Assembly (NCBI RefSeq): GCF_004963255.1
Contig: NZ_SUGA01000032.1
Coordinates: forward strand, 286-64,285
Length of the DNA: 64,000 nucleotides
DNA from: Mesorhizobium sp.
Lineage (GTDB): Bacteria; Pseudomonadota; Alphaproteobacteria; Rhizobiales; Rhizobiaceae
Reading direction: 5' to 3'
Shown: positions 1,663 through 51,595 of the stretch, in pieces
Position numbering within the stretch: position 1 is the stretch's first letter
Layout of the letters: every line of letters starts with the position of its first letter
Position numbers and translations under genes: made by a program
The notes under the pieces: model-generated
Told to the model about the DNA's origin: nothing
Database searches by the model: none
What the model saw: the letters and a program-made list of their open reading frames with translations, nothing else

Positions 1663-2277
1663 TCACCCGCCTTTGACGTTTATCCGCGTCCCTGGAGGCA
1701 AACCCCTCGCTTTCGCGATGAGCTGAGCCGTAATGTGCCAATAAACTTCCAGATCTGTCAGTTCCAGATTTGCACTATCGTCTTTGCCGCCCAGGAAGAG
1801 CGGCACCTTGTAGCCGATGCATTGGTCGTAGGCAGGTTCGGCGCCACCATTCCCGCGCCACGTCGCGTAAAAATTCGAGGCCAAGGCGGCATCCTGGTAC
1901 TCATCCAATTCGATTTCATGAAAAGTGCGGATATTGGCCGGAATCTGAAGCGCCTCGCCGGTCCCTGGCTCGAACATCACGACACCAGGCTCCCCATCCT
2001 CGGTTCGTTTGGTGTCAATGGCGAATGTCCTGCCCAACCAATCGTATCCAAAACAGGTAATGCGCCCGGCGAATGCAGGGAAGCCCACGACTATTCTGCT
2101 GCTCCACGCGGCCAAATCCTGGGCACGGACGATGCGGTAAAGGCCGTGATTGAACGACACGCCACTGAAACTGGAAAGCAGCTCATTCAGGCTTGGCACA
2201 CCAGTGTCGATGCTCACAGAATCAGGCTTGCGGCCTGCGTCCGGAGAAAAGCTTTGTCGAAACTTTGGAAACATCAC
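1663..2277 (-). CDS. Tdi1-like (DUF1851) nuclease immunity protein
   Basis: FGYDWLGRTFA and CIGYKVPLFLGGKDDSANLELTDLEVYW motifs; start overlaps the toxin stop (2274-2277). Confidence 0.8.
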   Translation of the reverse strand: MMFPKFRQSFSPDAGRKPDSVSIDTGVPSLNELLSSFSGVSFNHGLYRIVRAQDLAAWSSRIVVGFPAFAGRITCFGYDWLGRTFAIDTKRTEDGEPGVVMFEPGTGEALQIPANIRTFHEIELDEYQDAALASNFYATWRGNGGAEPAYDQCIGYKVPLFLGGKDDSANLELTDLEVYWHITAQLIAKARGLPPGTRINVKGG

Positions 2278-4955
2278 CGATCTCCGATCGTTACCTTGCC
2301 AATTCTCGTCCCGTGAGGCAGATGCTTTATCCGATGATATATCTGGGGACCCAAGCTACGGTTCACGCTTGAATCCAGCGGAGCCATGTTATGCGTCGCC
2401 TCCGCACCTCCCAATTGCAAATCGTGTACATGATCCACGTCGTGGCCGATAGGCACTTCATTGCCTTCTGCTTTGTACCTGGCACTGGCCGACGTCGGAG
2501 CACGAACCGACGGAGTGACTATCTTCTCAACCGCGTTTAGAGCCGCGACCTTTAGATCTGCCGCAAGTCGTTGTGCCGCTGTCCAATGCGGCATGTAAAA
2601 CAGATGTAAGTCGGGACGATCGGAGCCGTTGGTTGCGCCTTCAGAACCAATCGAGGCCTCGCCCGCGTCCCGTGGGATGGCGGAATTCTCGTTCGTTCTA
2701 GGATCGGCCAGATAGGGCGATGCCCCGTCTATTTTAACATCCGTGCCGAAAGACGACTTTGCATCGGCGGGCCGGTCGGCAATTCTCGCCACCACCCGCC
2801 GACCAATCGCGCCGATCCCCTCGGCGAGCGCATTTGCGCCAGTGCCCAGGATCGCTCCAGCGCCCATTTCGCGCACGATGTCCCGGCCGTTGAGCGCAGC
2901 ATCGACGCCGCCGAACACGGCCCCGTCGGCAGCCGCGGTGGTGCTTCTCGCCAGGAAGCCGGGGAAACCTTCAAGGGTTTCAGCTCCCAGCCTGCCCGTG
3001 AAGGTAAGGCCGGCTTTCTGAAAGCCTTGGCCGGTGAGGAAAGCGCCGAGCAGGTTTGCGCCTATGGCAGCCGAGCCGGCACGATCCTCGGCGTCTTCGG
3101 TTTCGGCTTGTTCGGCTGCCCGCAGTTCGGCGTAGCTCTTGTCCGAGAAGATCGCATTCAAGCCGGCGGCGATCGTGTCCGCCTGACCGAAAGTCGCGCC
3201 GTTGGCCATGAGCCTGACAGTGTCGTTCGCCGCCACAAATGGCTTTTGCCACCATGAGCCGGCATCGAACCGCACGCGCGCCGGATGCGCAGCCATCTCG
3301 ATCAGATTTGCCTGCAGCGCTTTTCCCTGGGCTTCCAACTCCGCGGGAGTGATCTTTGGATCGTCCGACGCCTTTTGGCGCAGGCGTGCCAAAGCGGACT
3401 GGAAAACCTGTCCGGCGAAGGCGAAGCGCGTCTCCGGGTCACGCAGAGCCTTGAGTTTGTCACTCAGCTCGATGATGCGCGGCTGCAGCGGCACGCTGTC
3501 ATCGACATATCTTGCGCCAAGGTCGTCCGAGAACTCCTGCGGGACAGCCAAAACCGTGCTGAAACCCAACCGCAGCTGGGCAGCTCTCGCCCACACAACG
3601 GCCGCTTGTAATTCCTCCGGCGTTTTGACCTTGCTCCAGTCTGGAGCATCGCCGCGAAACACCCCACTGGCGTACGCGACTGGATCGGCGGCGCGGGCGG
3701 CCATGATCAACTGAGCGGCGCCGGCCTTGACTTCGTAGCGTTTGCGCGCTTCCAGCGAGCCGCCGGGTCCAGGCCTGCAGTGTAGGAGCTCGGCACTGAT
3801 CGCCTGGTTCGACGCCGCATGCATGTCGGAGTAGGCTTTGCCGATGCCGGTGTTGACCCGGAATAGTTTGAATCGTTCTGGGCCCAGGTCGGCGCCGTAG
3901 ACCTGGACGAAGTCCTGAGCGGTTGGTTCTTCCTCAGGATATTTGCCGGTGGCCGCGATGACGGACGGCGCGCTCTGCTCGGCAAGCATGACCCGCGCAT
4001 TCGCGCCGATCATCTGGACCGCGGTGGCGTTGTTGGCCTGAGTTTTCAGCGCGGCAATGTCGCCGGGTTTCAGATAGGTGATGGCATCGAGAGGTATGGC
4101 TGTGTCGCTGTCCGGCGACGGGCGTTCGCCGAACGCTTGCGCCACCATCTCGTCCGGCGTTTTTTGGCCGGTTGCCGCAGCTTTTTCATCCCGAGCCACA
4201 GCACCAAGCTGCGCCCTCACCGTCTCGCCCATGCCATCGCTCGCCACCGGGCCGGCGCTGAGCAGCTCGGCGGCGCGGCGCGGGTCCAGCGCGATCAGCG
4301 CTTGCAGGCGCTCTTTCGCCGTACGGGCGAGCCAGTCGGCTTCGGCCAGCGCCTTGGCTCGCGGGTCAAGGTCCATCTTGGCGATGAGATCGAGGCCGGC
4401 CTGGCGGGAGGCGTCGAAGGCGGTGGTGTCGTTCGGGTCGCTCTGCGCGATGTTGCTGAGCACGGCGGTGTGAACCTCCGCCGCCTGATCCTGCTCATAT
4501 TGCTTGCGCCGCTGATTTTGCTGCGCCGCCATGCGCCGACCGCCTACGGCGCGAAGCGCCTCCTTGCGCGCGGCAAGACCGGCGCGCAGCTCGGGCGGCA
4601 GCTGTTTCAGGAAATTGCCGAACAGCGCGTCGAACACGCCGGTCTTCACAACCTGGCCGGTGTACGGATCGACCTGGCCATACATGGCATCGTGCAGGCC
4701 GGCGCCGTCGGCGGGCGCGTTGGCCACCGCATCGGCCTCGGCCTGGGCGAGCTCGCCGTTCAGCCGGCGCGCGGCGATCTCGGTGTCGAAGGCCTCTTGC
4801 TGCGCCTTGCGCTGCTCGTAGCGCTCGGCGGCGGCTTGCCACCGGTCGCCGAACTGCTGCATCGCCTCGCCGACCGGCGAGGAGTCCGGATATTGCACCG
4901 CATTGCCGGTATCGAGCCGGCGCTCGCCGACGAACAGGGGGATGATGTGGACCAT
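2274..4955 (-). CDS. Polymorphic toxin 1: carrier D1 + D2 + Gly/Ala-rich hydrophobic segment + HNH-like nuclease tip (893 aa)
   Basis: Start MVHIIPLF at 4955 with AGGAAA RBS matches the paralog starting at 14565. C-terminus DVDHVHDLQLGG...NMAPLDSSVNRSLG is a beta-beta-alpha-metal nuclease-like motif. Followed directly by a Tdi1-like gene. Confidence 0.8.
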   Translation of the reverse strand: MVHIIPLFVGERRLDTGNAVQYPDSSPVGEAMQQFGDRWQAAAERYEQRKAQQEAFDTEIAARRLNGELAQAEADAVANAPADGAGLHDAMYGQVDPYTGQVVKTGVFDALFGNFLKQLPPELRAGLAARKEALRAVGGRRMAAQQNQRRKQYEQDQAAEVHTAVLSNIAQSDPNDTTAFDASRQAGLDLIAKMDLDPRAKALAEADWLARTAKERLQALIALDPRRAAELLSAGPVASDGMGETVRAQLGAVARDEKAAATGQKTPDEMVAQAFGERPSPDSDTAIPLDAITYLKPGDIAALKTQANNATAVQMIGANARVMLAEQSAPSVIAATGKYPEEEPTAQDFVQVYGADLGPERFKLFRVNTGIGKAYSDMHAASNQAISAELLHCRPGPGGSLEARKRYEVKAGAAQLIMAARAADPVAYASGVFRGDAPDWSKVKTPEELQAAVVWARAAQLRLGFSTVLAVPQEFSDDLGARYVDDSVPLQPRIIELSDKLKALRDPETRFAFAGQVFQSALARLRQKASDDPKITPAELEAQGKALQANLIEMAAHPARVRFDAGSWWQKPFVAANDTVRLMANGATFGQADTIAAGLNAIFSDKSYAELRAAEQAETEDAEDRAGSAAIGANLLGAFLTGQGFQKAGLTFTGRLGAETLEGFPGFLARSTTAAADGAVFGGVDAALNGRDIVREMGAGAILGTGANALAEGIGAIGRRVVARIADRPADAKSSFGTDVKIDGASPYLADPRTNENSAIPRDAGEASIGSEGATNGSDRPDLHLFYMPHWTAAQRLAADLKVAALNAVEKIVTPSVRAPTSASARYKAEGNEVPIGHDVDHVHDLQLGGAEATHNMAPLDSSVNRSLGPQIYHRIKHLPHGTRIGKVTIGDR

Positions 4956-5099
4956 TGGGCTGTTTCCTGGCCGGCGGTTTTGGGGGATGCGCGCAGCGGC
5001 GGGCCGCCAGAGGGTGGCGGCCAGTTCGGCGGTGCGGATGGTGAAGGTTCGGCGGGGGGCGCGGATGGCGAAAGGAGTGCGGCGAGAGCGCCTGCGTCC

Positions 5100-5316
5100 C
5101 CTTCTCCCCTTGTGGGAGAAGGTGGCCGCGAAGCGGCCGGATGAGGGGTGCTCCAGCTTGGCGGCCACTCATCCCCTTGTGAGGCGGGAGCCAAGTTTGG
5201 CGACGCCTCGTTTCTTCCAGCACCCCTCATCCGTCTCGGCGCTGGCGCGCCGATCCACCGCCCGGGGGCGAGCCACGGGCCTCGCCCCGTCCTTCAGACC
5301 CCACAGGGGGAGAAGG
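5100..5316. repeat. REP/RIME-like palindromic intergenic repeat (mosaic copy)
   Basis: Arms cttctccccttgtgggagaaggtggccgcgaagcggccggatgagggg and cccctcatccgtctcggcgc match the copies at 28531 and 51442. Confidence 0.8.
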
Positions 5317-5323
5317 AGAGGCG

Positions 5324-5647
5324 TTATCTCTCCTCGGCGCGCGCCGCTTTTTCCAGCGCCGCGAGGTCGGCGTCTTCCAGCGTCAGGAACCCCATGATGT
5401 GCTGCACGACTTCGGCGCGGGCATTGCTCAGCGCGCTGTGCAGCTCGAAGCCGTCGGGCGTCTTCGTTCGGGCCAGCCAGTCGCCGTAGGAGGGGCGGCG
5501 GTAGTAGCCTGTCGTGGCGGTGAGGTCGGCCAGCACAAGCTCGCCATCCTCGCCGGAAAAGACGCGGCGATAGGCCTTGGTCAGCGCCTCGCGCGCGGCG
5601 AGCGGGCCGCCGGCGTCGGAGGGACGGGCGAAGCGTTTGCGGCTCAT
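5324..5647 (-). CDS. Bbp19-like phage protein
   Basis: AYRRVFSGEDGELVLADL...ARAEVVQHIMGFL pattern; coupled to the portal stop, the usual position in BPP-1-like podophages. Confidence 0.65.
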   Translation of the reverse strand: MSRKRFARPSDAGGPLAAREALTKAYRRVFSGEDGELVLADLTATTGYYRRPSYGDWLARTKTPDGFELHSALSNARAEVVQHIMGFLTLEDADLAALEKAARAEER

Positions 5648-7482
5648 GCGGCACCATTGGCGGCGCCGCCCACGGGGCCGCCCTGGGAGTCAGGCACGGC
5701 GCCCTGCCCGCCGGGCATCGCGCCTTGCGTCGCGCCGGCCGAACCGGCAGCGCCGCCGCCTGCCCCGCCTTGGGCGCCCTGCATCATCGCCTGAAGGCTG
5801 TCGAGCAGGCCGCTGTCTCGCGCCTGCACGGCGGCCGGCACCGCGTCCTTGGCCACCTTGCCGGCGGTGGCGATCGCCGCCATGCCGGCCTGCGCCTGCT
5901 GTGCCTGGGCGCGCGCGCCGCGCATCCCTTCCACCTCGTCCTTGCGCCGGAAAATGCGCTGCGGGCTGCGGCCGGCGCTCTGCACGACGCGGATCGCCTC
6001 GTCGCCGTCGATATTGTCCATGATGCCGGGATCGAACTGCGCCATCTGCATGGCGGTGGTCACCACCTGGATGGTGTCGCGGGCCTCGGCCGAGCGGCGC
6101 AGCACGTCGAGCGGGCCGGTGAAGGTCGGCCGCACCGCCTTGCCGGCGAGGCTTTCCGGCGGGCGGAAGCGGCTGTCCTGGTCGTAGAGGCCTTTGTCCT
6201 CGAGGATCGACAGCTCGCGATCGAGATTGGCGGCAAAGCCGGCCTGGATGATCGAGCCGGAGGGACCGAGCAGCGCGCCCTTCTCCTCCTGGCGGATCAG
6301 CGCCTCGGTCGCGGTCATCTGCGGGTTCTGCACCAGCGTCTGGAAAAGGTTGACGAACATCATGTCGCGGATCTCCTCCGCCCGGCTCGCCGCATAGTCG
6401 AAGGCATAGCTCGGGTTCTGGCCGGTGGCGATCGGCTGGATCAGCGGCCGGCCATTGTCGTCGATCAGGCCAGGATAATTCTCGCCGGGATTGAGCACCG
6501 GCACATAATCGAGCCTGGCCTTGGAGGCCCTCGGCGGATCGGTGATCTGCTGCAGCGCGCGCAAGCCGGAGCGGCGCACGGCGTTCTCCTCGCGCACCGT
6601 GGTCAGCGCCTCGATGGCCGGCGAGATGCCGTAGGCGTCGCCCTCGTAGCGGCGCCAGTTGAAGGTCGAGACCGGGAAGGTGCGGAAGCCGGACTCGCGC
6701 ACGATCTCCTCCTCGTCCTCAATGACGTGGTAAGAGGCGAAGGCCTGGTCGAGATACTGGTAGAAACCGCCCTTGCGGTACATGCGGCGCTCGTCGCGCG
6801 GCTGCACGCATTGGATCAGCGAGATCTTCTCCTCGCATTTGGCCGGGTCGTCGACCAGCGCCTTGATGCGCGCCGGCAGCTTTTCATAGCCGAGCAATTG
6901 CGCCGCCTGGCGCGCCGTGCGCTCGTAGCGGCGGTGGAAAATGTCGACCTGGCCCCAGCGGTTGCGCGACAGATAGCCCTCGACCACGGGGATCGAGGCG
7001 TAGCGGATCAGCGTGCCGCCGAACCCTTCCTCGGCATAGAGATAGGCCGGGCCGTAGCGGACGACGTTGCGCAGACAGGCCTGCGTCGCCGGCACGAAGT
7101 TGGAGTTGGCGGAATAGCGCAGCGCGAACAGGAAATCGCGCAAGGCCTCGGCCCATTCCTTCTCCTCGTCGGTTTCCTCGTCGTTCATCTCGGCCGTGGT
7201 CAGCCCATGCCATTTTTCGGACTGCGGGATGATCAGGCTTTCCAGACCAGCCGCAAGACGGTTGGCGGCGCTGTTGATGGTGTTGGCGTAGACGCGCGAA
7301 CCGCGGCGCTCCTGCCGCTCGGCCTGGCTGTCCGAGCGGCTGGTGCGGCGGCCCGACCAGATGTCGGGCGCATCCGGATCGCAGAACTCCGCCACCGCCT
7401 CCCAGACGGGCTCGTAAGTGGCGCGTTCGGTCTCGAGTTCGGCCTGTCGCGACAGGATATCGCGGGCGCGGGAGTCGGTCAT
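5644..7482 (-). CDS. Phage portal (head-to-tail connector, T7/BPP-1-like)
   Basis: 612 aa intact ORF with W...GYGISPAIEAL, MTATEALIRQEEKGALLGP and FTGPL patterns of head-to-tail connectors; Gly/Ala/Gln-rich tail; host-like GC. Confidence 0.85.
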   Translation of the reverse strand: MTDSRARDILSRQAELETERATYEPVWEAVAEFCDPDAPDIWSGRRTSRSDSQAERQERRGSRVYANTINSAANRLAAGLESLIIPQSEKWHGLTTAEMNDEETDEEKEWAEALRDFLFALRYSANSNFVPATQACLRNVVRYGPAYLYAEEGFGGTLIRYASIPVVEGYLSRNRWGQVDIFHRRYERTARQAAQLLGYEKLPARIKALVDDPAKCEEKISLIQCVQPRDERRMYRKGGFYQYLDQAFASYHVIEDEEEIVRESGFRTFPVSTFNWRRYEGDAYGISPAIEALTTVREENAVRRSGLRALQQITDPPRASKARLDYVPVLNPGENYPGLIDDNGRPLIQPIATGQNPSYAFDYAASRAEEIRDMMFVNLFQTLVQNPQMTATEALIRQEEKGALLGPSGSIIQAGFAANLDRELSILEDKGLYDQDSRFRPPESLAGKAVRPTFTGPLDVLRRSAEARDTIQVVTTAMQMAQFDPGIMDNIDGDEAIRVVQSAGRSPQRIFRRKDEVEGMRGARAQAQQAQAGMAAIATAGKVAKDAVPAAVQARDSGLLDSLQAMMQGAQGGAGGGAAGSAGATQGAMPGGQGAVPDSQGGPVGGAANGAA

Positions 7483-7655
7483 GTTGTGCCTTTCACGAGG
7501 GCCATGGGACACTGGTGGATGCATATCGGTCGCGTGCACCGCAAAAGGTTCTTGTGCGACGCAACAATCAATGCGTAGATGGGTTTGGGTAACGGCGGTG
7601 GGGTCACGATGGCCGGAGAGCGGATCTGAGACCCGAGACGACCCACTTCGACGCC

Positions 7656-10130: not shown

Positions 10131-10325
10131 TCACACTCCGAGCAGCACGCGGCGCTGTCCGGAGACATCGCTCGGCGCAAGATCGGTCTTGATGGTGGAG
10201 AGCGTGCCCTGGCGCTGCTCGAGCTCAGCGCGCAGCGCGTCTTCCCGCGCCTGCACATCCTTGTCCTGCGCGGTCGGCACCGGCGGCAGCGGCTTCAGTT
10301 CCGGGGGCTTTTGAAAGAGACACAT
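10131..10325 (-). CDS. Small phage-type protein preceding portal (MCLFQKPP..., 64 aa)
   Basis: MC-x-x-x-K-PP Pro-rich start and position upstream of the portal resemble small podophage virion assembly proteins. Confidence 0.55.
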   Translation of the reverse strand: MCLFQKPPELKPLPPVPTAQDKDVQAREDALRAELEQRQGTLSTIKTDLAPSDVSGQRRVLLGV

Positions 10326-10794
10326 GGTTCCAGCTTTCCCTTGTCCAGTCATGGAGGAAGAAGTCTTCGCCGTTCCTGCCATAGCCCGGCAGGCGGCAGC
10401 GTTGGGTAGCGCCGAGCCTGTCCAGCCAGCGCAAGGCAAGTTCATTGTCGGCAAGCGCCCTCGCCTCGACCCGCCATGCGCCCCGCGCCGCGACCTGCGG
10501 CCCCAGCACCGCGTGGAAGAAGCGGGTGATCTCGGGCACGCAGCGCCTCATGCGGCGCGTGCCCCAGCTCCAGGCGATCCACAGGCCGGCGCGCTGCTCG
10601 GCCGCGCCAAAACCGGCCTCCGGATTGCCGTCGAGCTCGGCGACATAGGCAAAGCCCTGAAGTGCGGTCAGCGCCAAGAGCGCCGGCGACCAATGGTCGA
10701 GCTGGCAGTCGATCTCGGCCCGGTCCTCCGGGCGCAGGTTCGCGGCGATATAGGAGAGGTCCCGCAGCGTGGCGGGGACAATGCGGATGGGCAT
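10225..10794 (-). CDS. GNAT-fold phage virion protein (internal virion protein A-like)
   Basis: IAANLRPEDRAEI...NELALRWLDRLGA pattern; GGGAG RBS; overlaps the next gene by about 100 nt. Confidence 0.65.
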   Translation of the reverse strand: MPIRIVPATLRDLSYIAANLRPEDRAEIDCQLDHWSPALLALTALQGFAYVAELDGNPEAGFGAAEQRAGLWIAWSWGTRRMRRCVPEITRFFHAVLGPQVAARGAWRVEARALADNELALRWLDRLGATQRCRLPGYGRNGEDFFLHDWTRESWNHVSLSKAPGTEAAAAGADRAGQGCAGAGRRAAR

Positions 10795-12556: not shown

Positions 12557-12830
12557 GCAGCGCCTGTTCCACCCTGTCATAGAGCGGCGCGAGCTCGGCA
12601 GACTGGTCGCTGGCGCCGGCATTCTCGCCTGTGCCTTCGGTTTGGTCCTCGGCGTGATCGAGGGCGATGCCGCTGCCAGCGTTGCGCTCCATTGTCCTGA
12701 CCTCTTGTTGCTTGAAAATGTTCGCCGGCCTGGCAAGACCTTGCCTCGCCTGACGATCGCGCCCGGCGGAGGCGCCTGGGGTCCTGCGCGATCAGCGCTT
12801 CCAGGCACGCATTCGCGGCGCCGGAGCGTC
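12557..12830 (-). pseudogene. Remnant of a toxin carrier gene (D1 end + D2 start)
   Basis: MERNAGSGIALDHAEDQTEGTGENAGASDQSAELAPLYDRVEQAL closely matches the start of the 19185 gene; upstream, another frame gives LEALIAQDPRR, matching the D1 end of both full toxins. Confidence 0.65.
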
Positions 12831-12889: not shown

Positions 12890-13084
12890 TCAGGCTGGCG
12901 TCAGTCGGATAATTACAAACACCATATACAAAGACATAAATCCGGGAACACTGAACGCGGCTGCGCCAAAAAGAACAAGGGCTCGCCGGAGCGGCGTAAG
13001 CTGTTGCGACTTGACGCCCTTCGCCAACAGGAACATGGCGAATGCAAAACTGGGAACTCCCAGTAAGAATATTAAAACATCCAC
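12890..13084 (-). CDS. 64-aa two-TM protein, candidate PLA2 immunity (copy 2)
   Basis: GTG at 13084 with GGAG RBS; FLLGVPSFAFAMFL...FSVPGF aligns with the neighbour's YFLGSISFVFAIFL...LSLPGF. Confidence 0.55.
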   Translation of the reverse strand: MDVLIFLLGVPSFAFAMFLLAKGVKSQQLTPLRRALVLFGAAAFSVPGFMSLYMVFVIIRLTPA

Positions 13085-13122: not shown

Positions 13123-13314
13123 TCAATGGAAAATCCAGACAATTCTGTATACTGCAAAATCCCAAATAACGAAGAAGCCCGGCAAACTCAGAAAAGCCGA
13201 TATATAAATAGTGTATCGACCAATTTTCGGCCAGCGATCACTGCAGATTACGCCAACAAATGCCAAAAATATTGCGAAGACAAATGAGATAGAGCCAAGA
13301 AAGTAAAACCCCAT
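13123..13314 (-). CDS. 63-aa two-TM protein, candidate PLA2 immunity (copy 1)
   Basis: Two hydrophobic helices, low GC, immediately downstream of the PLA2-like toxin. Confidence 0.6.
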   Translation of the reverse strand: MGFYFLGSISFVFAIFLAFVGVICSDRWPKIGRYTIYISAFLSLPGFFVIWDFAVYRIVWIFH

Positions 13315-13389: not shown

Positions 13390-14565
13390 CTACCAATTGC
13401 CGAATGACATGCCGCTTTCAAACCGCGCCCTTCCAACAGCCGCTTGCACGTCGTCGTAAGCCCTTTGCGCTTCATCTCGGCCAGAAATCTCCGCCGCGCT
13501 CAACGGATGGAGCGCCAAATCGCCGGCAATCTTAATCCGGAAAGCCCTGAGCGCCAGTCGAGCGTATTTGGATGCGTCCCTGCGCTCCTCGTCGGTCTTC
13601 AAGGCTGGATCCGTGGCGTAATCCTCATTGTCGAGATATGACTTCAATGATGCTGCAAGTTTCCTATCCGCTAAAATTGTATCGCCCGGCGTTTTCGCGT
13701 CATGGTAGTCCGCGTCATGCTGTTTGTAAAACCCGTTCTGAATATCAAAGGGCGGCACGTCAAAACCGCCACCCCATGTCCCGCCGGTCCAGCCACGACC
13801 GCCGTAGTTGCCATAGGTTGGCATATTTCGGTTGATCCTATCGGACAGGCTTAAAGGCTGGTCATCGCGGGTCACCCCTGCGGCGCCCAGCATTTCCAAC
13901 GCGCGCTTGGGATCCCGCGCGATCAGCGCCTCGATCCGCGTCGTCGCCGCGCGATCGCGCCAAGCGGCTTCGGCCTGCAGCCGGCTTTCAGGATCGAGGT
14001 TCATCTTGCCGATGAGGTCGATGCCGGCCTGACGGGCGGCCTCGAAGGCGGCGTGGTCGTCGGGGTCGCTCTTCGCGATGCTGTCGAGCTCTTCGGCCTG
14101 GGCCGCCGCGAGATGGTCCTGCTCATACTGGGCGCGACGCTGCAGCTGCTGCATCGCCATGCGCACCGAGCCTGCCTCCCGCAGGGCCGGCTTGCGGCTG
14201 GCGAGGCCGGCGCGCAGTTCGGGCGGCGCCTGCTTCAGGAAATTGTCGAACAGCGTGTCGAACCGGCCTTCGAGCAAGACGCGCCCGCTATGCGGATCGA
14301 CCTCGCCATACGTGGCGTGGTGCAGGCCCTCGCCGTCGGCCGGCGCGTTGGCCGCGACATCGGCCTCTGCGCTCGCGATCTCGCCATCCAGCCTGTGCGC
14401 CGCGATCTCGGTGTCGAAGGCCTGCTGCCGCGCCATGCGCCGTTCGTAGTGAGCGGCAACCTCCTGCCAGTAGGGATCGAGCGGGCCGGCCGGCGCAGCG
14501 CCGGGCGCCGCATCGCGGGGATCGGGGCGGCGCTGATCGGTGAAGAGCGGAATGATGTGGACCAT
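13390..14565 (-). CDS. Polymorphic toxin 2: carrier D1 + phospholipase A2-like tip (391 aa)
   Basis: N-terminal ~230 aa collinear with toxin 1; tip has YGNYGGRGWTGG (Ca-loop-like) and HDADY (catalytic HD-like); GC drops at the tip. Confidence 0.75.
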   Translation of the reverse strand: MVHIIPLFTDQRRPDPRDAAPGAAPAGPLDPYWQEVAAHYERRMARQQAFDTEIAAHRLDGEIASAEADVAANAPADGEGLHHATYGEVDPHSGRVLLEGRFDTLFDNFLKQAPPELRAGLASRKPALREAGSVRMAMQQLQRRAQYEQDHLAAAQAEELDSIAKSDPDDHAAFEAARQAGIDLIGKMNLDPESRLQAEAAWRDRAATTRIEALIARDPKRALEMLGAAGVTRDDQPLSLSDRINRNMPTYGNYGGRGWTGGTWGGGFDVPPFDIQNGFYKQHDADYHDAKTPGDTILADRKLAASLKSYLDNEDYATDPALKTDEERRDASKYARLALRAFRIKIAGDLALHPLSAAEISGRDEAQRAYDDVQAAVGRARFESGMSFGNW

Positions 14566-14823
14566 GGGGTGCTTCCAGGCGCGCGGAGGCGCCGCCGGCG
14601 GCATGGCCAGCGCGCGCCGCGCCGGCTGCCGCTACGGGGCTGTCGGATCGGGGATTTCAGGGAGGCGGGAAGGCCGGCGTTGCGGAATAAAGGCGCCGGC
14701 GGCGCAAGCTTCAAACTACGGTGACAGTGCGTGATTTTCCGCTCGATCGAACGGAAACGTTGCGGACTTCAACAAGTGGAATCGCGTTCAGAAAATGAAT
14801 GCGTCCTCACCGCAATTCCGATG

Positions 14824-15252
14824 CTATTCCTCATCGTAGGGTTCGACTATCGCAACGAAAATGCCCAACGAATCAAGCAGATCAAAAGCGCGTTCTGAAA
14901 TGACGAGGCGGAAGGGCACTGCGATCCCGAAGTCGTCCTGACCCGCCTTTCCATGCACTTTCAACCAAACGAAACGCGGCAGCACCACGCCGGGTTGATC
15001 TTCCTGAAATTCTTCCGAGGTCGTCACCTCGGCGTCGGCAAACGTTGCGCCTGAAAAGCCCATCTTCTCCAACGCGCGCTGGGCTTCTTCAGTAACAAGG
15101 AAACAGGGAAACGTCGCAACAATCACGTCCCCGAACCATGCGTTCACCTCGTAGTGGAGCTTGGTTACGATCGGTGGATGAACGCTCGAGTCGAGAACCG
15201 TGCCTTTGCCAACCCCGCCAGCCGGGTGCGGCCGTATTTTAAAGTATTGCAT
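14824..15252 (-). CDS. Candidate immunity protein, paralog 3 of a tandem trio
   Basis: Shares DSSVHPPIV..LHY, FPCFLVTE, FVWLKV.G.AG.DDFG and ISER motifs with the other two copies. Confidence 0.65.
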   Translation of the reverse strand: MQYFKIRPHPAGGVGKGTVLDSSVHPPIVTKLHYEVNAWFGDVIVATFPCFLVTEEAQRALEKMGFSGATFADAEVTTSEEFQEDQPGVVLPRFVWLKVHGKAGQDDFGIAVPFRLVISERAFDLLDSLGIFVAIVEPYDEE

Positions 15253-15285
15253 CAGAGGAAGACCGATCAACCTGCAAGCTGAACC

Positions 15286-15717
15286 TCAGAAAGGTTCGAT
15301 TAAAGCATGGGAGATGCCCAATGGCCTCAGGGCATCGAGCACACGCTCGGAGACAACATGCCGGTGGTCCTCGGCTAGCCCGAAATCGTCGTGGCCCGCC
15401 CTCCCATCCACTTTCAGCCAAACGAATGGCGGCAACTCCACGTCCGGCTGCATCTCCTCGAACAATTCGGACGTGGTTACTTTGACCTTGTCGGAGGTCG
15501 CTCCCGAAAAGCCAGCCGTAAGAAATTTCGCTTTTAGGTATTCAGTGACGAGACAGCACGGGAACGACGCAACCATCACATCATCCAGCCACCCGTCGAA
15601 TTCATAGTGCAGACGTGTCACGATAGGAGGATGGACGCTTGTGTCCATAATGGCATCATCGCCAAGCCCGCCCGAGACTTCCGGTTCCAAATAGAAATAT
15701 TTCACTGGCCCTCCCAT
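15286..15717 (-). CDS. Candidate immunity protein, paralog 2 of a tandem trio
   Basis: Same motifs; likely GTG start overlaps the stop of an upstream gene remnant (GTGA). Confidence 0.65.
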   Translation of the reverse strand: MGGPVKYFYLEPEVSGGLGDDAIMDTSVHPPIVTRLHYEFDGWLDDVMVASFPCCLVTEYLKAKFLTAGFSGATSDKVKVTTSELFEEMQPDVELPPFVWLKVDGRAGHDDFGLAEDHRHVVSERVLDALRPLGISHALIEPF

Positions 15718-15909: not shown

Positions 15910-16338
15910 CTACCGATCATCGTAAGGCTCGACTATCGCGAACGGAATGCCCAGCGATTCAAGCAGATCAAGAACGCGTTCCGAGATGATGAGGTGGAAG
16001 GGTACCGCGATCCCGAAGTCGTCTTGACCCGCTCTCCCATTCACTTTCAACCAAACGAAATGTGGCAGGTCCAGGCCGGGTTGATCTTCTTGACATTCTT
16101 CCGAGGTTGTCACCTCGGCGTCTGCGAACGTCGCGCCTGAAAAGCCCATCTTCTGCAGCGCGCGCTGGGTCTCTTCAGTGACGAGGAAGCAAGGGAACGT
16201 CGTAACAATCACATCCCCGAACCAGCCCTCTACCACATAGTGTAGCTTGCTCACGATTGGCGGATGGACACTCGAATCGAAAACTGTGCCTTTGCCGACC
16301 CCACCAGCCACGTTCGGCCATATTTTAAAAAATCGCAT
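15910..16338 (-). CDS. Candidate immunity protein, paralog 1 of a tandem trio
   Basis: Highly similar to 14824-15252 at both DNA and protein level. Confidence 0.65.
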   Translation of the reverse strand: MRFFKIWPNVAGGVGKGTVFDSSVHPPIVSKLHYVVEGWFGDVIVTTFPCFLVTEETQRALQKMGFSGATFADAEVTTSEECQEDQPGLDLPHFVWLKVNGRAGQDDFGIAVPFHLIISERVLDLLESLGIPFAIVEPYDDR

Positions 16339-16352
16339 CAGAGAAAGACCGA

Positions 16353-16680
16353 TCAACCGGCGAAGTTGTTGTCGACGAACATCTCAGCAAATTGCTGAGG
16401 CGTGAGCGTCACCTTGTTGTCGTGGGCGATTTTGAGATTCTTCCTCCACATATCGCGGATTGCATCCGGCATCGTGTCGGGCATGTGGAGAGCCTTGGCG
16501 ATAGCATCTTCCCATCGTCCATTGCCGCCATAGATGGCCTGCAGCTTGGGCGCCATGGCGTTCAGCGTTGCGGCGGAATCTTCGGTCCAAGGCTCTGCTG
16601 CATAAATTGTGTCGTCCTCGTCAAAATCTGACAACCGTCCACCGTCCAACGATATCCAACAGCTTTGTTATTTTTGCCAC
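16353..16680 (-). pseudogene. Deletion chimera of the 11882-12167 and 11558-11872 homologs
   Basis: LSDFDEDDTIYAAEPWTEDSAA is fused in frame to LNAMAPKLQAIYGG...NNFAG; a 7-bp tandem duplication (ccgtcca x2, ~16635-16648) frameshifts the 5' end. Confidence 0.7.
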
Positions 16681-17395: not shown

Positions 17396-17815
17396 CTACC
17401 TTTCAATAATGTAGTAATAAGCGCCACTCTCAAGGCCCTGACCTGCACCCTCCCAGGGCCGGAAGGTTATGTTTGCGTTCCGACGCTTCCATTGATCCAA
17501 AATGAAGATCCCCGATTCATTTTGACCGAGGTAAATTCCGGTGTGACTAAATCCGCTTACCCCCCCAGATTGGCCCTTTGGTCCATAATGAATTTTGCCC
17601 TTTCCGTCACCCCAATCACCGTTGAACGTGGCGATGGGAGTCCCGGGTAAAATCTTACCATTTCCTTGTACTCTCTCTCCCTTTTTCCATGTTGAGGCAG
17701 GAATACCGGCCATACCTCCCACTTCCTTTGTCAACGCGACGCATTGGCCATTGCCGAAACTTTTTCCCAGAATTTTTGTGTAGGATTTAGCCCTCGCCTG
17801 GACGTCTTCCGGCAA
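17396..17815 (-). CDS. Tae/BPSL0067-like NlpC/P60 peptidoglycan amidase domain, out of frame with its upstream carrier
   Basis: GQCVALTK (Cys), PIATF, HTGIYLGQ (His) and ILDQW motifs; frame is open upstream to about 17955. Confidence 0.75.
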   Translation of the reverse strand: MPEDVQARAKSYTKILGKSFGNGQCVALTKEVGGMAGIPASTWKKGERVQGNGKILPGTPIATFNGDWGDGKGKIHYGPKGQSGGVSGFSHTGIYLGQNESGIFILDQWKRRNANITFRPWEGAGQGLESGAYYYIIER

Positions 17816-19185
17816 AACTGAAATATTTGTGGTGCTGTTCCCAAACCATCCTTCAAGAGATTTTTCGACTGCGGTAGCTTTTTGCTGAAATCGATAGAAG
17901 GAGCCTTCGGACTCCCTGGCGGCGGCTTCATCTGTTCTGATGGGACCTCCTTCAAGTCAACCCGCAAATTGGAATTGTCGTCCGCGGATTGGGACGCCGG
18001 GTCAGATGTTCCAGAAGGAACGCCCGGACGCTCTGGCGGCGGATCTATCTGCTCCGGCAGCACCTGCGTCAGTTCAACCGGCGCATCAAAATTGTCATTG
18101 GCAAGCCCGGACGCGGATACCAGGGAACCACTGTCGGCAGCGACCGGAGAGTCACCAGCCGCAAGGGTCTCGGAGGATTGCGCAGGCGCCCGCGTCGAAG
18201 GCGACGCATCCTGGCTCTCAAAGGGTGCCTTTGAGGGCAACCCAAAGCGCTTGTCGAAATCATCCTGCCCAAGCGGGGTTACCTTCTGCGTCTGCCCGCC
18301 AAGCAATCCAGCCTCGGCAAACTGCTGCTTGACCGCCGCCTTGACGACCGGATCCGTCGTTCCGGAAAGCAGGCCGTTCATCCCGGCCCACATGTCTTGC
18401 GGCGGCATTCCGCCGAGCTCTTTCAGCACCGATCGCGGCACGGGCTCAGCGTTCTCGATGCCGAGATAGCGCTGCGTGGCGATGGTGAGGGCCAGCGCGT
18501 TCCGGACCGCGGCGGGGTCGCGCCAGCCCTGGGCCGCCGCGGCGCGCCAGGCCTCGTTCGCCTGCGGAAACGCCTTGACGGCCTCGCCGGCAGGATCGTT
18601 CTGCCTGGCTTCCAGCACGTGTTGGGCGGCAGCGGCGGTTATCCGGTAGCGCGACTGGCCCTCCGGCGAATTCGCCGCGCCGACGGCTGCGTCCAGCAGC
18701 TGGCTGTTTATGTCCCGGGCCGGCATGACACGCATGTCGAAGGCCTGCTTGCCCGTCCCCACGCTCTGGTCGAACTTCGCCAGTTGCCGGCGGCCTTCCT
18801 CGACGCCGAAGACATAGGCGAAGTCCTCGGGCTTGGGCATCACGCCGGCATAGCTGCCGGTGTCCGCAAAAGCCTTCGGGGCGTTCTGAAAGGCCAGAGA
18901 GATATTGGCGCGCGCGCCGACCAGCTGGGAGACATTGGCGGCGCGCGCACGCCGGGCAAGAGCGCCGGCGGAGCCCGGCGTGAGATCGGCAAGCACGGCG
19001 GCGAGCGGCCGATCCTTGTCCGTCAGGGCATCGACCGGCCGGTCCTTCGCCAGCGCCTGTTTCACCCTGTCATAGAGCGGCGCGAGATCGGCGGACTGGT
19101 CGCTGGCGCCGGCATTCTCGCCGGTGCCTTCGGTCTGGTCGTCGGCGCTATCCAGGAGCGTTCCGTCGCCGATCTTACGATCCAT
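17731..19185 (-). CDS. Polymorphic toxin 3 carrier (D2 + Pro-rich linker), frameshifted before the amidase tip
   Basis: LADLTPGSAGAL...GSYAGVMPKPEDFAYVFGVEEG aligns with toxin 1 ITYLKPGDIAAL...GKYPEEEPTAQDFVQVYGADLG. Confidence 0.7.
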   Translation of the reverse strand: MDRKIGDGTLLDSADDQTEGTGENAGASDQSADLAPLYDRVKQALAKDRPVDALTDKDRPLAAVLADLTPGSAGALARRARAANVSQLVGARANISLAFQNAPKAFADTGSYAGVMPKPEDFAYVFGVEEGRRQLAKFDQSVGTGKQAFDMRVMPARDINSQLLDAAVGAANSPEGQSRYRITAAAAQHVLEARQNDPAGEAVKAFPQANEAWRAAAAQGWRDPAAVRNALALTIATQRYLGIENAEPVPRSVLKELGGMPPQDMWAGMNGLLSGTTDPVVKAAVKQQFAEAGLLGGQTQKVTPLGQDDFDKRFGLPSKAPFESQDASPSTRAPAQSSETLAAGDSPVAADSGSLVSASGLANDNFDAPVELTQVLPEQIDPPPERPGVPSGTSDPASQSADDNSNLRVDLKEVPSEQMKPPPGSPKAPSIDFSKKLPQSKNLLKDGLGTAPQIFQFCRKTSRRGLNPTQKFWEKVSAMANASR

Positions 19186-19246
19186 TGTTTTGACCCTTGT
19201 AACTCTGGGATGAGTGCGAGGTGCCCTGCTCGGCTCGCCGAACACG

Positions 19247-19468
19247 CTATTCGGCGGCCGCCGCAGATTGTATGGCGATGGCCGCGTCGGTCAGCTGTTT
19301 GAACTCTTCCAGTTTCATTGGATAGTACTGGTAGTTGCCACTGGCCATGCCTGCCAGCACTACGTATTTGCGGCCTTGGCTATCGCGCTTCAAACGCAGG
19401 GAAATCGTGCATTGGCGGTCCATAATTGGCGTGTCGATCCGTTGGATGACCTTGCCAGTGATCGCCAT
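19247..19468 (-). CDS. Small hypothetical protein
   Basis: 73 aa, lower GC, between the terL fragment and toxin 3. Confidence 0.45.
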   Translation of the reverse strand: MAITGKVIQRIDTPIMDRQCTISLRLKRDSQGRKYVVLAGMASGNYQYYPMKLEEFKQLTDAAIAIQSAAAAE

Positions 19469-19562
19469 CTTGATAGAGCGGAAAATCGTCAAGAAGTTCA
19501 TGCGGTCTGCCCCAAGCTCGATGAACTTTACCGCGCGAGTTCCGCCTTGTCGCCTTCACCAT

Positions 19563-19999
19563 CTCACCTGAAAGCTCCCAGCGGATCGCTCTGCCCACCT
19601 GGCGCCGCGCCGCCTTGAACTCCGCCGGATCGACGATCGCCTCGCGCAGCATCATCACGCCGTAGCGCGTCGCGGCCATGAGATCGTCGCGCAGCTTCAC
19701 CACCTGGCCGTTCTTGCGATGGTAGAGGCGGAATTCCTCGAACCAGGCGGCTAAGGTCGAAAACACCTTGAAGCGGCCGGACTGCATGCGGTCGAGCATG
19801 TCCATTAGGCCGGCCTCGACCGAGACGGAGCCGTCGGCGAAACGGGCGTGGCCGGTCAGCATGTTCAGCCCAGGCGCGGCATATTGCTTCGCCAGCGCCA
19901 CGCCGGCGCCTTCCAGCGTCTCGCGCCGGCCGTCGCGCGGCCAGGCGAAGGGCAGCCATTCGCCCCAAGCCTTCAGCGCCACCGCCTGCATAGCGGGCG
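19563..19999 (-). pseudogene. Duplicated 3' fragment of terL with a 1-nt deletion
   Basis: Near-identical direct repeat of 22735-23172 (437 vs 438 bp); no 5' half. Confidence 0.9.
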
Positions 20000-20395
20000 A
20001 CCAATGGTCGAAACAGACAGTCGATCTCCGCCCGATCTCCGGGGCGCAGATTAGCGGCAATGTTGGAGAGGTCCCGCCGGCGTGGCGGGGACGACGCGAA
20101 TGGGCATTCAGAGATATTCAGAATCGCACGGATGTCGAGTCGACGAAGCCGACGATGATGGCACTCAGACTAGTTGGACGGCCCACGGTTGGTGTCGATT
20201 GAAGCTGCAAGGCGGCACGACCTGCAAGGGCCAATCGACGAACAATCGTGTTGCTTGATGCACACCCATACGTCGGCGTCACCATCAGCGTGTGGCAGTA
20301 ACTCAGGCGGATAGGTGATAACTTTCCCCTGGGGAAGACTCATGGTGTCTGCTCCGGTATAGTTCGTATCCCGAATCACCCAAGGAGCTGCCGCT

Positions 20396-22635: not shown

Positions 22636-22735
22636 GCGCTAAGCGCCCTAACCTACAGAACAATACGCTGAATCGGCCACCTTGTGTCAACGGTGCATTT
22701 AATGACTGCTGCCATCCTAGTGACGCAGAGTTCGC

Positions 22736-23491
22736 TCACCTGAAAGCTCCCAGCGGGTCGCTTTGCCCCGCCGGACGCCGCGCCGCCTTGAACTCCGCCG
22801 GATCGACCACCGCATCCCTCAGCATCATCACGCCGTAGCGCGTGGCGGCCATCAAATCGTCGCGCAGCTTCACCACCTGGCCGTTCTTGCGATGGTAGAG
22901 GCGGAATTCCTCGAACCAGGCGGCCAAGGTCGAAAACGCCTTGAAGCGGCCGGACTGCATGCGGTCGAGCATGTCCATCAGGCCGGCCTCGACCGAGACG
23001 GAGCCGTCGGCGAAACGGGCGTGGCCGGTCAGCATGTTCAGCCCATGCGCGGCATATTGCTTCGCCAGCGCCACGCCGGCGCCTTCCAGCGTCTCGCGGC
23101 GGCCGTCGCGCGGCCAGGCGAAGGGCAGCCATTCGCCCCAGGCCTTCAGCGCCAGCGCCTGCATGGCGGGCGTCTGCTGGGAGGCGCGGTGCGCCTTGGT
23201 CACATAGACGACATCGGCCTCGGTATCCCAGGCAAGCTCGACCGCGGCGGAAGGATGGTCCCAGCCGAAATCGAGCGCGCCGACCCGCGGCCACCAGCGC
23301 GGCAATTTGAACGGCTCGCAGGCGATCAACTCCTCCGCCACCGGGAAAATGCGGCCCGAGCCCAGCACCGGAATGCCTTTCGCGCGGGCCTCGCGTTCAT
23401 GCTCGGGATAGGCGGCGATGATTTCGGCGCGCTGCTCAGGCGAATAATGCCCGGCATCGTCGATGGTCATGAAGGTGACGTGGCGGGACAT
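22736..23491 (-). CDS. terL: Terminase large subunit, C-terminal nuclease half
   Basis: GALDFGWDHPSA and DDLMAATRY nuclease-domain motifs; own GGAG RBS before MSRHVTF. Confidence 0.85.
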   Translation of the reverse strand: MSRHVTFMTIDDAGHYSPEQRAEIIAAYPEHEREARAKGIPVLGSGRIFPVAEELIACEPFKLPRWWPRVGALDFGWDHPSAAVELAWDTEADVVYVTKAHRASQQTPAMQALALKAWGEWLPFAWPRDGRRETLEGAGVALAKQYAAHGLNMLTGHARFADGSVSVEAGLMDMLDRMQSGRFKAFSTLAAWFEEFRLYHRKNGQVVKLRDDLMAATRYGVMMLRDAVVDPAEFKAARRPAGQSDPLGAFR

Positions 23492-23502
23492 GGCAACTCC
23501 AG

Positions 23503-23670
23503 TTCCTCGCCCCGCGAGAGCGGGGAGAGGTGGCGCGGCGAAGCCGCGACGGAGAGGGGATGGCGCCGGCTTTGACCAGGGACGGGAGGCCATTCGCCAA
23601 GCGCTCTACGAAGGCCCCTTTCCGGCCGCTGCGCGGCCACCTCTCCCCCCGCTTCGCGCGGGGCGAGGAA
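23503..23670. repeat. REP/RIME-like palindromic repeat inside split terL
   Basis: ttcctcgcccc...ggggcgaggaa outer arms with ggggagaggtggcgcggcgaagccgcgacggag internal arm. Confidence 0.75.
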
Positions 23671-28429: not shown

Positions 28430-28530
28430 GAGTGTCCCTCCGGGTTGTCTGTTGATGCCCCAAGGACGGACGAAGGAAGAGGATTCCGACAGGGGGGTGG
28501 AAAATTGTTGGAAACGGAGACGCGGCGCCT

Positions 28531-28679
28531 CTCCTTCTCCCCTTGTGGGAGAAGGTGGATCGGCGCGTCAGCGCCGAGACGGATGAGGGGTGTTCCAGCG
28601 GAGTGAGACGCTGGCTGTCCCTGGAGCACCCCTCATCCGGCCGCTTCGCGGCCACCTTCTCCCACAAGGGGAGAAGGAG
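28531..28679. repeat. REP/RIME-like palindromic repeat (~149 bp)
   Basis: Near-identical to 51442-51590; ends are inverted copies of cttctccc...gggagaagg. Confidence 0.85.
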
Positions 28680-29424
28680 AATGGTGCCGCGGATGGCTGA
28701 TCGAGTCCCGCACGGTGCCGTATTCGGCGCCCCAGCGGTCAGTCATGTCGCAGCGTATGTCCCACAGCTCGGGGAAGAAGCGATGGCGGGCGCCGCCTTC
28801 CAGCATCTCCACCGGCCTGCCCTTCAGCGACTTCGAGCCCAGGCCGATCGAGCGGTGAATCAGGTAGAGGTGGTTGGCGCGGAATTTCTGGAACAGCTCG
28901 TCGAACTCGATCAGCGCCTCGGCCACGACATAGGCGTCGCCATGGTCGTAATGCTCGTCATAGATATCCGCCACGGTCAGCCCGCGGCCATCGAGATAGG
29001 CATGCTTGAAGGCCCGCCAAAGGTCCGGCGGCAGGCGCAGCAGGAATTTGAAACCCGGCGATTCCTGGCCGCTGCCATTGCCGAGCTGCAGGCGGATCTG
29101 CTGGTACTCCTTGGGCGACATGGTCTCCAGGAGATCGAGCTGCGCCGTCATCATACGCATCAGCCGGTGCACGCGGCCCATCAGCGTGACGACGCGGTGG
29201 GTATCCTGTTGCTCCAGGTAGTCGAGCACATCGACCAGCGTGTAGGCGATGAGCTTCATCCACAGCTCCTCGACCTGGTGCACGATCTGGAACTGCAATT
29301 CGTCGGCGTTGACCATCTCGGCAAGCGGCTTCTGGCAGGCGAGCAGCTGGTCGCATTTCAGATAGACGCCGTAGTCGCGCATCTCGGGCGCCTCGATGCG
29401 GGCGTGATAGTCCGTCTTGTCCAT
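28633..29424 (-). CDS. Tryptophan 2,3-dioxygenase family protein
   Basis: DELQFQIVHQVEELWMK and GNGSGQESPGF motifs; last codons lie in the repeat. Confidence 0.85.
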   Translation of the reverse strand: MDKTDYHARIEAPEMRDYGVYLKCDQLLACQKPLAEMVNADELQFQIVHQVEELWMKLIAYTLVDVLDYLEQQDTHRVVTLMGRVHRLMRMMTAQLDLLETMSPKEYQQIRLQLGNGSGQESPGFKFLLRLPPDLWRAFKHAYLDGRGLTVADIYDEHYDHGDAYVVAEALIEFDELFQKFRANHLYLIHRSIGLGSKSLKGRPVEMLEGGARHRFFPELWDIRCDMTDRWGAEYGTVRDSISHPRHHSPSPLVGEGGREAAG

Positions 29425-51431: not shown

Positions 51432-51441
51432 GCGCGGCTTC

Positions 51442-51590
51442 CTCCTTCTCCCCTTGTGGGAGAAGGTGGATCGGCGCGCAGCGCCGAGACGCATGAGGGG
51501 TGTTCCAGCGGAATGAGACGTTGGCTTTCCCTGGAGCACCCCTCATCCGGCCGCTTCGCGGCCACCTTCTCCCACAAGGGGAGAAGGAAG
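51442..51590. repeat. REP/RIME-like palindromic repeat
   Basis: Near-identical to 28531-28679; lies between convergent genes. Confidence 0.85.
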
Positions 51591-51595
51591 AGGCG

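Follow-up and report, generated by a model that had tools for sequence, protein, structure and literature searches.

A cysteine-free phospholipase A2-like domain as a candidate payload of a phage-borne polymorphic toxin system in Mesorhizobium

Introduction

Among the polymorphic toxins carried by phages, those described so far are mostly MuF proteins from phages of Firmicutes. A prophage of Mesorhizobium sp. raises the question of what a lipase-like domain does at the end of a phage protein in a proteobacterial host. The window analyzed here is a stretch of 64,000 nucleotides (RefSeq assembly GCF_004963255.1, contig NZ_SUGA01000032.1, positions 286 to 64,285 of the forward strand), and all positions below are counted within it unless a different contig is named. 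On its minus strand lies a gene whose product, P0001, joins a phage-type carrier module to a C-terminal domain, or tip, that resembles phospholipase A2 (PLA2) and contains no cysteine. The initial annotation, made from the sequence alone, proposed that the tip is either a membrane-damaging toxin or a virion entry enzyme. Of these two, the context favors an exchangeable toxin payload. With a probability of roughly 0.6, the tip acts as a Ca2+-dependent phospholipase and is the payload of a polymorphic toxin system of non-MuF type, borne by a phage, that also includes a membrane immunity pair.

Results

The gene and its motif

The open reading frame of P0001 extends to an upstream ATG at 14604 (13390..14604, minus), which gives a protein of 404 amino acids (aa), and residues are numbered here according to that longer form. 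The true start is likely M14 at 14565, because it is preceded by a GGAAG ribosome-binding site and matches the starts of the orthologue P0004 (391 aa) and of paralogues that begin with MVHIIPL. The features of the gene are as follows.

13390..14565, minus strand: carrier-PLA2 gene (P0001), 391 aa from M14, whole gene intact
13864..14565, minus strand: carrier N-terminal module, aa 14-247 (234 aa), predicted all-helical, 71% GC
13390..13863, minus strand: cysteine-free PLA2-like C-terminal domain, aa 248-404, 56.6% GC
13630-13833, minus strand: conserved core of the PLA2-like domain, aa 258-325
13789..13815, minus strand: putative Ca2+-binding loop YGNYGGRGW, aa 264-272, aligned with YGCYCGxGG of secreted PLA2 (sPLA2)
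13705..13719, minus strand: putative catalytic H296-D297 and Y300 (HDADY), aligned with H48-D49-Y52 of bovine PLA2
13666..13668, minus strand: D313 of the AD..L motif, candidate partner Asp of the catalytic His, at least 90% conserved
13735..13737, minus strand: Asn290 (codon AAC), where Asp is found in at least 90% of the family according to its alignment

P0001 reads YGNYGGRGWTGG at aa 264-275 (window 13780-13815) and PPFDIQNGFYKQHDADY at aa 284-300, the latter containing YKQHDADY. The codons of H296, D297 and Y300 occupy 13717-13719, 13714-13716 and 13705-13707, respectively. Across the whole genome (13.4 million six-frame residues), the pattern [YFW]G.[YFW][GC]G.G…HD..Y has a single match, which falls in the P0001 reading frame. 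The entire protein contains 0 Cys. The glycine-rich loop and HD pair described in the initial annotation are therefore present in an intact reading frame as a combination that occurs once in this genome, and the remark that no Cys is left holds for the complete protein.

A rare family related to phospholipases A2

When 1.84 billion cluster representatives were searched exhaustively with HMMER, 45 relatives of the domain were found at E <= 0.001; the cysteine-free PLA2-like family is therefore rare. A word-based homologue search found few relatives compared with the exhaustive search, and no match to the domain was found by tblastn among 50,697 phage records. An alignment of 34 family members (A1) has the consensus P.YGNYGGPGWTGG..GG….PP.D.LD..F..HD..Y..A……AD..L, in which G..GG and HD are invariant and the Y, the second D, the Y and AD..L are conserved in at least 90%.

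Comparison of the A1 profile with the sequences of the PDB gave matches to PLA2 or parvoviral VP1 in all 60 cases listed (best E 0.019). The entries comprise pancreatic and venom sPLA2, rice sPLA2 and two parvovirus VP1 chains, and the alignment falls on PvDxLDxxxxxHDxxY with spacing exactly as in sPLA2. The Pfam family for the parvoviral PLA2-like domain, PF08398, is touched by 18 of the 34 members of A1 (best E 9.3e-5); relatives scanned singly score 18.1-18.8 bits, under the gathering cut-off of 23.9 bits. A scan of the domain against PHROGs returned a weak match to phrog_11353 alone, a family of unknown function. The matches of a phmmer search of the domain against PDB sequences were rejected, as all were FLAG-tag artefacts (DYKDHDGDYKDHD).

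A link to canonical sPLA2 is provided by the genus itself. The A1 scan of 151 Mesorhizobium genomes also gave a second, weak class of matches, a conserved Cys-containing lipoprotein of ~145 aa with the canonical sPLA2 signature GNYCGPG…PVDRLDAACQxHDACY…CDCD. In HHalign, A1 aligned with this lipoprotein family (A4) at 94.4% probability and E 9e-8, and A4 matched sPLA2 structures in the PDB at E 5.4e-5. D313 of AD..L aligns with the C-D of the Cys-containing homologue and may be the equivalent of Asp99 of group I/II sPLA2, which hydrogen-bonds the catalytic His. The PLA2 likeness claimed in the initial annotation is supported at the sequence level by the uniform PDB matches, the contacts with PF08398 and the HHalign link through A4, and it is highly probable that the domain belongs to the PLA2 superfamily, a placement well supported by sequence. 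The lipoprotein may be a chromosomal bacterial sPLA2 homologue. Weak matches of its class occur in about half of the 151 Mesorhizobium species; the copy of the same genome lies outside the window, on contig C81:40149-40328, and relatives are present at four other loci (L019-L022).

AlphaFold2 models of the domain have an overall predicted local distance difference test score (pLDDT) of 71-77. The helices around HD and AD are confident (pLDDT 75-92), and a helix predicted at aa 287-301 spans the HDxxY region (pLDDT 75-85). When the BFVD was searched with Foldseek, the leading matches were the PLA2 regions of densovirus and parvovirus VP1, with weak E values of 0.13-1, probabilities up to 0.99 and template-modelling scores up to 0.67. 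A Vibrio phage "phospholipase A2 domain protein" was also among the leading matches, with equally weak E values (0.13-1). The models are no more than suggestive of a PLA2 fold.

Family members outside Mesorhizobium occur in several settings. In RHS proteins (P0037, P0023), the domain forms the C-terminal tip, whereas in RTX/cadherin-type exoproteins (P0047, P0018, P0039, P0022, P0029) it is N-terminal. In metagenomic RNA viruses, it is the N-terminus of S-domain coat proteins (P0020, P0036), which parallels parvovirus VP1u, and is internal to an RNA-dependent RNA polymerase (RdRP) polyprotein (P0030). PLA2 domains in RNA viruses have been reported (Wolf et al. 2020, PMC7508674). A standalone member of 105 aa (P0050) is found in a T7-like structural module. 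On a metagenomic T7-like phage contig (L005, 264-581), the 105-aa member is encoded just 5' of genes for 212 and 831 aa, both of tail-tubular size, together with a T7_gp14 homologue; it is possible that this member is a virion-associated PLA2 of a lytic podovirus. A literature search turned up no description of a PLA2 carried by an ejection or head protein of a phage.

Selection on the fusion

The ratio of non-synonymous to synonymous substitution rates (dN/dS) of the PLA2 core is 0.10 in comparison with L002, one of two syntenic Mesorhizobium assemblies, at a synonymous distance (dS) of ~1. For the whole C-terminal domain, it is 0.15-0.17 in comparison with L012 and with a carrier-less copy in L004. 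The core differs from that of the closest orthologue by few substitutions, of which 4 are non-synonymous and 1 is synonymous. Two orthologues, P0004 (92% identity) and P0057 (67%), share the architecture of P0001. The junction between the N-terminal 240 residues and the PLA2 domain (…EMLG…DDQ.LSLSDR.NR..PTYGNYGG) is retained in both at dS 0.6-0.9 and is the same in P0057, at 67% identity; the architecture is therefore no accident of local rearrangements. A chance fusion produced by such rearrangements was considered and is rejected in view of the junction kept in P0004 and P0057 at these distances and by purifying selection. Judged from the substitution pattern, the carrier-PLA2 gene is under purifying selection and evidently functional.

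Exchangeable tips on a common carrier

Residues 14-247 of P0001 match positions 1-240 of phrog_37988 and phrog_24166 (E 3e-91) and are 57% identical to aa 66-311 of P0002, a full-length paralogue in the window. The module is predicted to be all-helical with pLDDT >90. The description of the carrier as phage-type in the initial annotation thus holds, as the N-terminal 234 aa are the first module of PHROG 37988/24166 proteins and the gene lies beside terminase and portal genes. The carrier module is present in 54 of the 151 Mesorhizobium species genomes, with 1-5 clustered copies each, usually in frames of 800-1000 aa, and the carriers are encoded between terminase and portal, or just past the portal, of podovirus-like prophages.

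The carriers end in different tips. One paralogue, of confirmed carrier identity, bears a TNT NAD-glycohydrolase (PF14021), and another a glucosaminidase (PF01832). The tip of the L001 orthologue of the third carrier in the window (L001 being the second syntenic assembly) matches type VI secretion system (T6SS) amidase effector 2 (PDB 6win) at E 6.8e-8. The C-terminal ~110 aa of P0002 read …HDVDHVHDLQLGG…HNMAPLD… and look HNH/EndoVII-like by eye, a reading unconfirmed by Pfam and the PDB, neither of which gave a match; among phages, this tip has relatives only in two Ruminococcus phages, as hypothetical proteins with 42% identity. In the window, traces of further carriers flank the PLA2 cassette.

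17731-19245, minus strand: carrier piece P0003 (middle part), within the third-carrier region 17399..19245
17399-17812, minus strand: intact Tae2-like amidase tip, in a reading frame that differs from that of P0003, 91% identical to the L001 orthologue
12558..12708, minus strand: displaced remnant of the start of a carrier middle part, 85% identical to 19051-19200 (P0003 N-terminus)

Either a frameshift has separated the Tae2-like tip of the window from its carrier, or the tip is expressed through a shift in reading frame.

The PLA2 tip occurs in just 4 of the 151 Mesorhizobium species, compared with 54 for the carrier. In L004, a carrier-less orphan PLA2 cassette consists of g192 and two miniproteins, a and b, which are described below. 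In L001, the PLA2 gene and the miniproteins are followed by a gene of 596 aa that starts with the carrier middle part and ends in the amidase; at this place, the window retains only the 150-bp remnant at 12558-12708. Such a remnant is the footprint expected if a longer carrier gene had received the PLA2 cassette by recombination and its own 3' part had been displaced in the process. The GC content falls from 0.71 in the carrier to 0.57 in the PLA2 tip and 0.44 in the miniproteins. Comparison with L001 gave a dS of 0.03 for the tip and 0.20 for the carrier, so by this measure the tip was shared at a later date than the carrier. Tips are thus swapped as modules. The conserved N-terminal module with variable C-terminal tips is a hallmark of polymorphic toxins (Zhang et al. 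2012), as are orphan cassettes and recombination footprints, seen here in the L004 orphan, the 12558-12708 remnant, the GC step and the discordance in dS.

Three tandem paralogues of phrog_32682 (~145 aa, unknown function) lie upstream of the gene at 14824-15270, 15286-15717 and 15910-16356, minus strand. Because a homologue in L004 is directly 3' of a 699-aa carrier gene, these paralogues probably constitute an immunity family serving another tip.

Two miniproteins follow the PLA2 domain

Two small genes lie directly 3' of the carrier-PLA2 gene.

13123..13314, minus strand: miniprotein a, 63 aa, two transmembrane (TM) segments, AAGGGG ribosome-binding site; candidate immunity protein
12890..13084, minus strand: miniprotein b, 64 aa from the GTG at 13084, well-spaced GGAG, two TM segments; candidate second immunity protein

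The two are paralogous and hairpin-type, with 44% GC. They trail the PLA2 domain at 6 of 7 loci (the window, L001, L014, L002, L004 and L012), and at the seventh, L016, a single b-like copy follows the domain. Identity to the window copies is 48-92%, and dN/dS is 0.26-0.48 where dS is unsaturated (0.34-0.48 for miniprotein b). Neither miniprotein matches a Pfam or PHROG family, holin PHROGs included. Polymorphic toxin systems (Zhang et al. 2012) encode a cognate immunity protein immediately 3' of the tip, a role for which a and b are candidates. Miniproteins a and b may well form a membrane immunity pair for the PLA2 tip, since tight linkage, low GC and evolution faster than that of the toxin are expected of immunity genes.

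Phage context of the locus

The window is syntenic with L001 and L002, and in both the prophage adjoins the same host genes, which encode an AsnC regulator, tryptophan dioxygenase and DoxX. In the prophage, the terminase is followed by the carrier with the cassettes, then by a phrog_308 internal-virion-like gene, the portal, Bbp19 and another carrier; in a complete genome, genes of scaffold, capsid and tail size come after this second carrier.

2274..5168, minus strand: paralogous full-length carrier P0002, 964 aa, phrog_37988 over its full length, probable start M72 at 4955
5644..7539, minus strand: T7-type portal gene (PF12236, E 4e-70)
22736..23593, minus strand: terminase large-subunit piece, with a second 3' copy at 19380-20060

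P0002 is encoded just downstream of the portal gene and bears a Gly-rich region in addition to its HNH-like tip; it gave short matches only against the 50,697 phage records. The phrog_308 'internal virion protein' homologue (189 aa, 10225-10794, minus) lies between the toxin cassettes and the portal and is conserved in all related prophages at 82-92% nucleotide identity; its first ~110 bp are duplicated at 19993-20107. The terminase large-subunit gene has its 3' end in two copies as well (19563-19999 and 22735-23172, 95% identity), and the insert between the duplicates carries HipA-like and HIRAN-domain genes. The terminase of L001 and L002 is likewise called as two reading frames. Short direct and inverted repeats of 40-160 bp with 75-100% identity are found at 5086-5259, 28521-28680 and 51430-51596; one of these sites is at the P0002 5' end and another is close to the junction of prophage and host. 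The repeats may represent a small mobile or repetitive extragenic palindromic (REP)-like element. A scan for promoters and terminators gave consensus-level matches only.

Discussion

A candidate mechanism can be drawn from these results. The carrier module would direct the protein into, or along with, the phage particle. Delivery with the particle is suggested by the position of the gene in the head and packaging module and by analogy with MuF toxins. Without disulfides, the PLA2 tip could be made in the cytoplasm and would remain inactive there through low free Ca2+. Once delivered, it would hydrolyze phospholipid on the Ca2+-rich periplasmic side of the membranes of the target cell. Miniproteins a and b would protect the inner membrane of the lysogen itself.

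A number of observations weigh against a phospholipase payload. Some concern the assignment of the domain: the direct E values of the A1 profile against the PDB are just 0.02-0.3, P0001 has no PF08398 match at E <= 1 in the Pfam scan, and its C-terminal domain has no match in Pfam, NCBIfam or PADLOC, the thresholds of curated families being unmet. P0001 also carries Asn290 at a position that is Asp in at least 90% of the family, the closest relatives among them. The calcium loop has a pLDDT of <50 in both AlphaFold2 models, and Foldseek of the domain against the PDB returned generic helical bundles and no PLA2. In the structural comparison with sPLA2 that the initial annotation had called for, the top BFVD matches are parvovirus and densovirus PLA2 regions at weak E values, and the PDB search gave no PLA2. 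Other observations concern the carrier. The Pfam scan found no MuF domain in P0001 or P0002; Foldseek of full-length P0001 against the PDB likewise gave generic helical bundles, which leaves the carrier with no informative structural relative; and P0001 is without the middle and Gly-rich parts that carriers of 800-1000 aa possess. Packaging of the carrier into virions is suggested by gene position alone. Rearrangement of the locus is extensive: terminase ends are duplicated, an amidase is frameshifted and deletions are present, and the prophage may therefore be defective. Finally, the known immunity proteins against phospholipases are usually periplasmic lipoproteins, not 64-aa membrane hairpins.

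The main rival to the toxin reading is that the tip serves in virion entry, as an accessory of an ejection protein that breaches the host membrane for the phage DNA, much as parvovirus VP1u acts in endosomes. In that case, miniproteins a and b would be superinfection-exclusion proteins or unrelated membrane proteins. Such a role is consistent with the relatives on RNA-virus coat proteins and the RdRP polyprotein, the 105-aa standalone member in a T7-like structural module by tail-tubular-size genes and gp14, the parvoviral VP1 regions among the best fold matches, and the location of the carrier gene among head and internal-virion genes. Moreover, the amidase and glucosaminidase of the sister carriers are typical of virion-associated envelope-degrading enzymes too. 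However, an essential entry function should be conserved, and the tip is confined to 4 of the 151 species, compared with 54 for its carrier. The tip is also interchangeable with cytoplasmic toxins such as TNT and exists as a carrier-less orphan cassette, and co-inherited small membrane proteins with foreign GC are the signature of a toxin-immunity cassette. An entry enzyme is therefore unlikely, though it is the most credible competitor of an exchangeable toxin payload.

It seems improbable that the tip is catalytically inactive, either as a membrane- or lipid-binding, structural or pore-type module like the Lys49 PLA2 homologues or as a decaying remnant in a defective prophage. The replacement of a nearly invariant Asp by Asn290 would fit such a module, as would the excess of non-synonymous over synonymous changes in the core (4 vs 1), the rearranged and partly frameshifted prophage around it, and the Gly-rich loop, which has an insertion of ~9 residues relative to sPLA2 and is not confidently modelled. 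Yet the His, Asp, Tyr, loop glycines and AD Asp are all intact, the reading frame is intact and has a ribosome-binding site, and dN/dS over long distances is 0.10-0.17. Asn290 aligns with Asp42 of bovine PLA2 in the A1-PDB alignment, and Asp42 is not known to be part of the catalytic His/Asp/Ca2+ site. Two small two-TM proteins beside a putative lipid hydrolase also resemble a holin with a membrane enzyme, which raises the idea that the PLA2-like protein and two holin-like TM proteins form a membrane-disrupting lysis cassette of the prophage. This idea is very hard to sustain: the carrier module to which the domain is fused is also the one that bears TNT, Tae2-like and HNH-like tips, the cassette lies between terminase and portal and not in a lysis module, and the miniproteins match no PHROG, holin families included. 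A toxin payload with its own immunity pair remains the best account of the locus.

A broader proposal, which is speculative and rather unlikely, is that the prophage, found at the same host-gene site in three strains, is a particle-based toxin delivery device in which several carriers, packaged by their N-terminal modules, are ejected into target cells. The cysteine-free PLA2 tip would then be the bacterial and phage sister group, and possibly the source, of the capsid PLA2 with which parvoviruses and some RNA viruses enter cells.

Comparison with known systems

Among known enzymes, the PLA2 of parvovirus and densovirus VP1u (group XIII sPLA2; PF08398) shares with the tip the absence of Cys, a Gly-rich Ca2+ loop, HDxxY and an Asp shortly downstream, as well as a virus-associated carrier protein without a signal peptide. 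P0001 differs in that its loop, YGNYGGxGWTGG, has an extra Gly-rich insertion, PF08398 is unmatched, the host is bacterial, a protein of a tailed phage acts as the carrier, and two membrane miniproteins accompany it. If they serve in immunity, these two 64-aa membrane hairpins would together make a lipase antidote of unusually small size.

The sPLA2 of groups I/II (bovine pancreatic, PDB 1bp2) and plant sPLA2 (2wg7) have the identical spacing P-x-D-x-x-D-x-x-x-x-x-H-D-x-x-Y, and YGxY[C/G]GxG matches. In contrast to groups I/II, P0001 has ~9 extra loop residues and no beta-wing, and an Asp follows HD at 17 residues instead of ~50. The disulfide framework of sPLA2 (5-8 S-S bonds) is also absent from P0001, with its 0 Cys. 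Parvoviral group XIII PLA2 is not known to have this framework either, so it is no defining trait of the superfamily. Provided that it is active, the enzyme of P0001 would be a disulfide-free PLA2 that can be produced in the bacterial cytoplasm.

PLA2 tips are already known from Tox-PLA2, the C-terminal tip of RHS or filamentous polymorphic toxins, with the motifs DxC[ST], CxxHxxxYxN and C (Zhang et al. 2012, PMC3482391). Tox-PLA2, of the Streptomyces-type fold (PDB 1kp4), and the present PLA2-like family both occur as C-terminal tips of RHS proteins. The Cys motifs of Tox-PLA2 are absent from P0001, which has no Cys and bears the sPLA2/parvoviral signature YGxYGGxG…HDxxY instead. The present family is rare, was missed by curated databases, and spans RHS and RTX toxins of bacteria, tailed phages and the capsid proteins of viruses of eukaryotes.

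The closest parallel for the whole system is the MuF polymorphic toxins of temperate phages, which combine a conserved N-terminal part with variable C-terminal toxins and presumed small immunity genes (PMC5576092). Few proteobacterial MuF proteins with known toxin domains were described, and no PLA2 tip was listed (Jamet et al. 2017, PMC5576092). P0001 and the MuF toxins are both prophage-encoded in the packaging module beside portal and terminase, and both have an N-terminal part with variable tips and small 3' genes. The carriers described here differ in having no MuF domain detected in the Pfam scan, which covers the MuF families PF04233/PF06152, in occurring several per prophage, and in having a proteobacterial host. 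The locus may be regarded as a proteobacterial counterpart to MuF toxins without a detectable MuF domain. Because the warheads would be expected to act both in the periplasm (Tae2-like, PLA2-like) and in the cytoplasm (TNT), the delivery route is experimentally approachable. PLA2 tips on polymorphic toxins, phage-borne polymorphic toxins of the MuF type and cysteine-free viral PLA2 are thus already known. New here are a tip with the sPLA2/parvoviral signature that falls below curated thresholds, a carrier without a detectable MuF domain, an alphaproteobacterial host, and a candidate antidote in the form of a pair of 64-aa hairpins.

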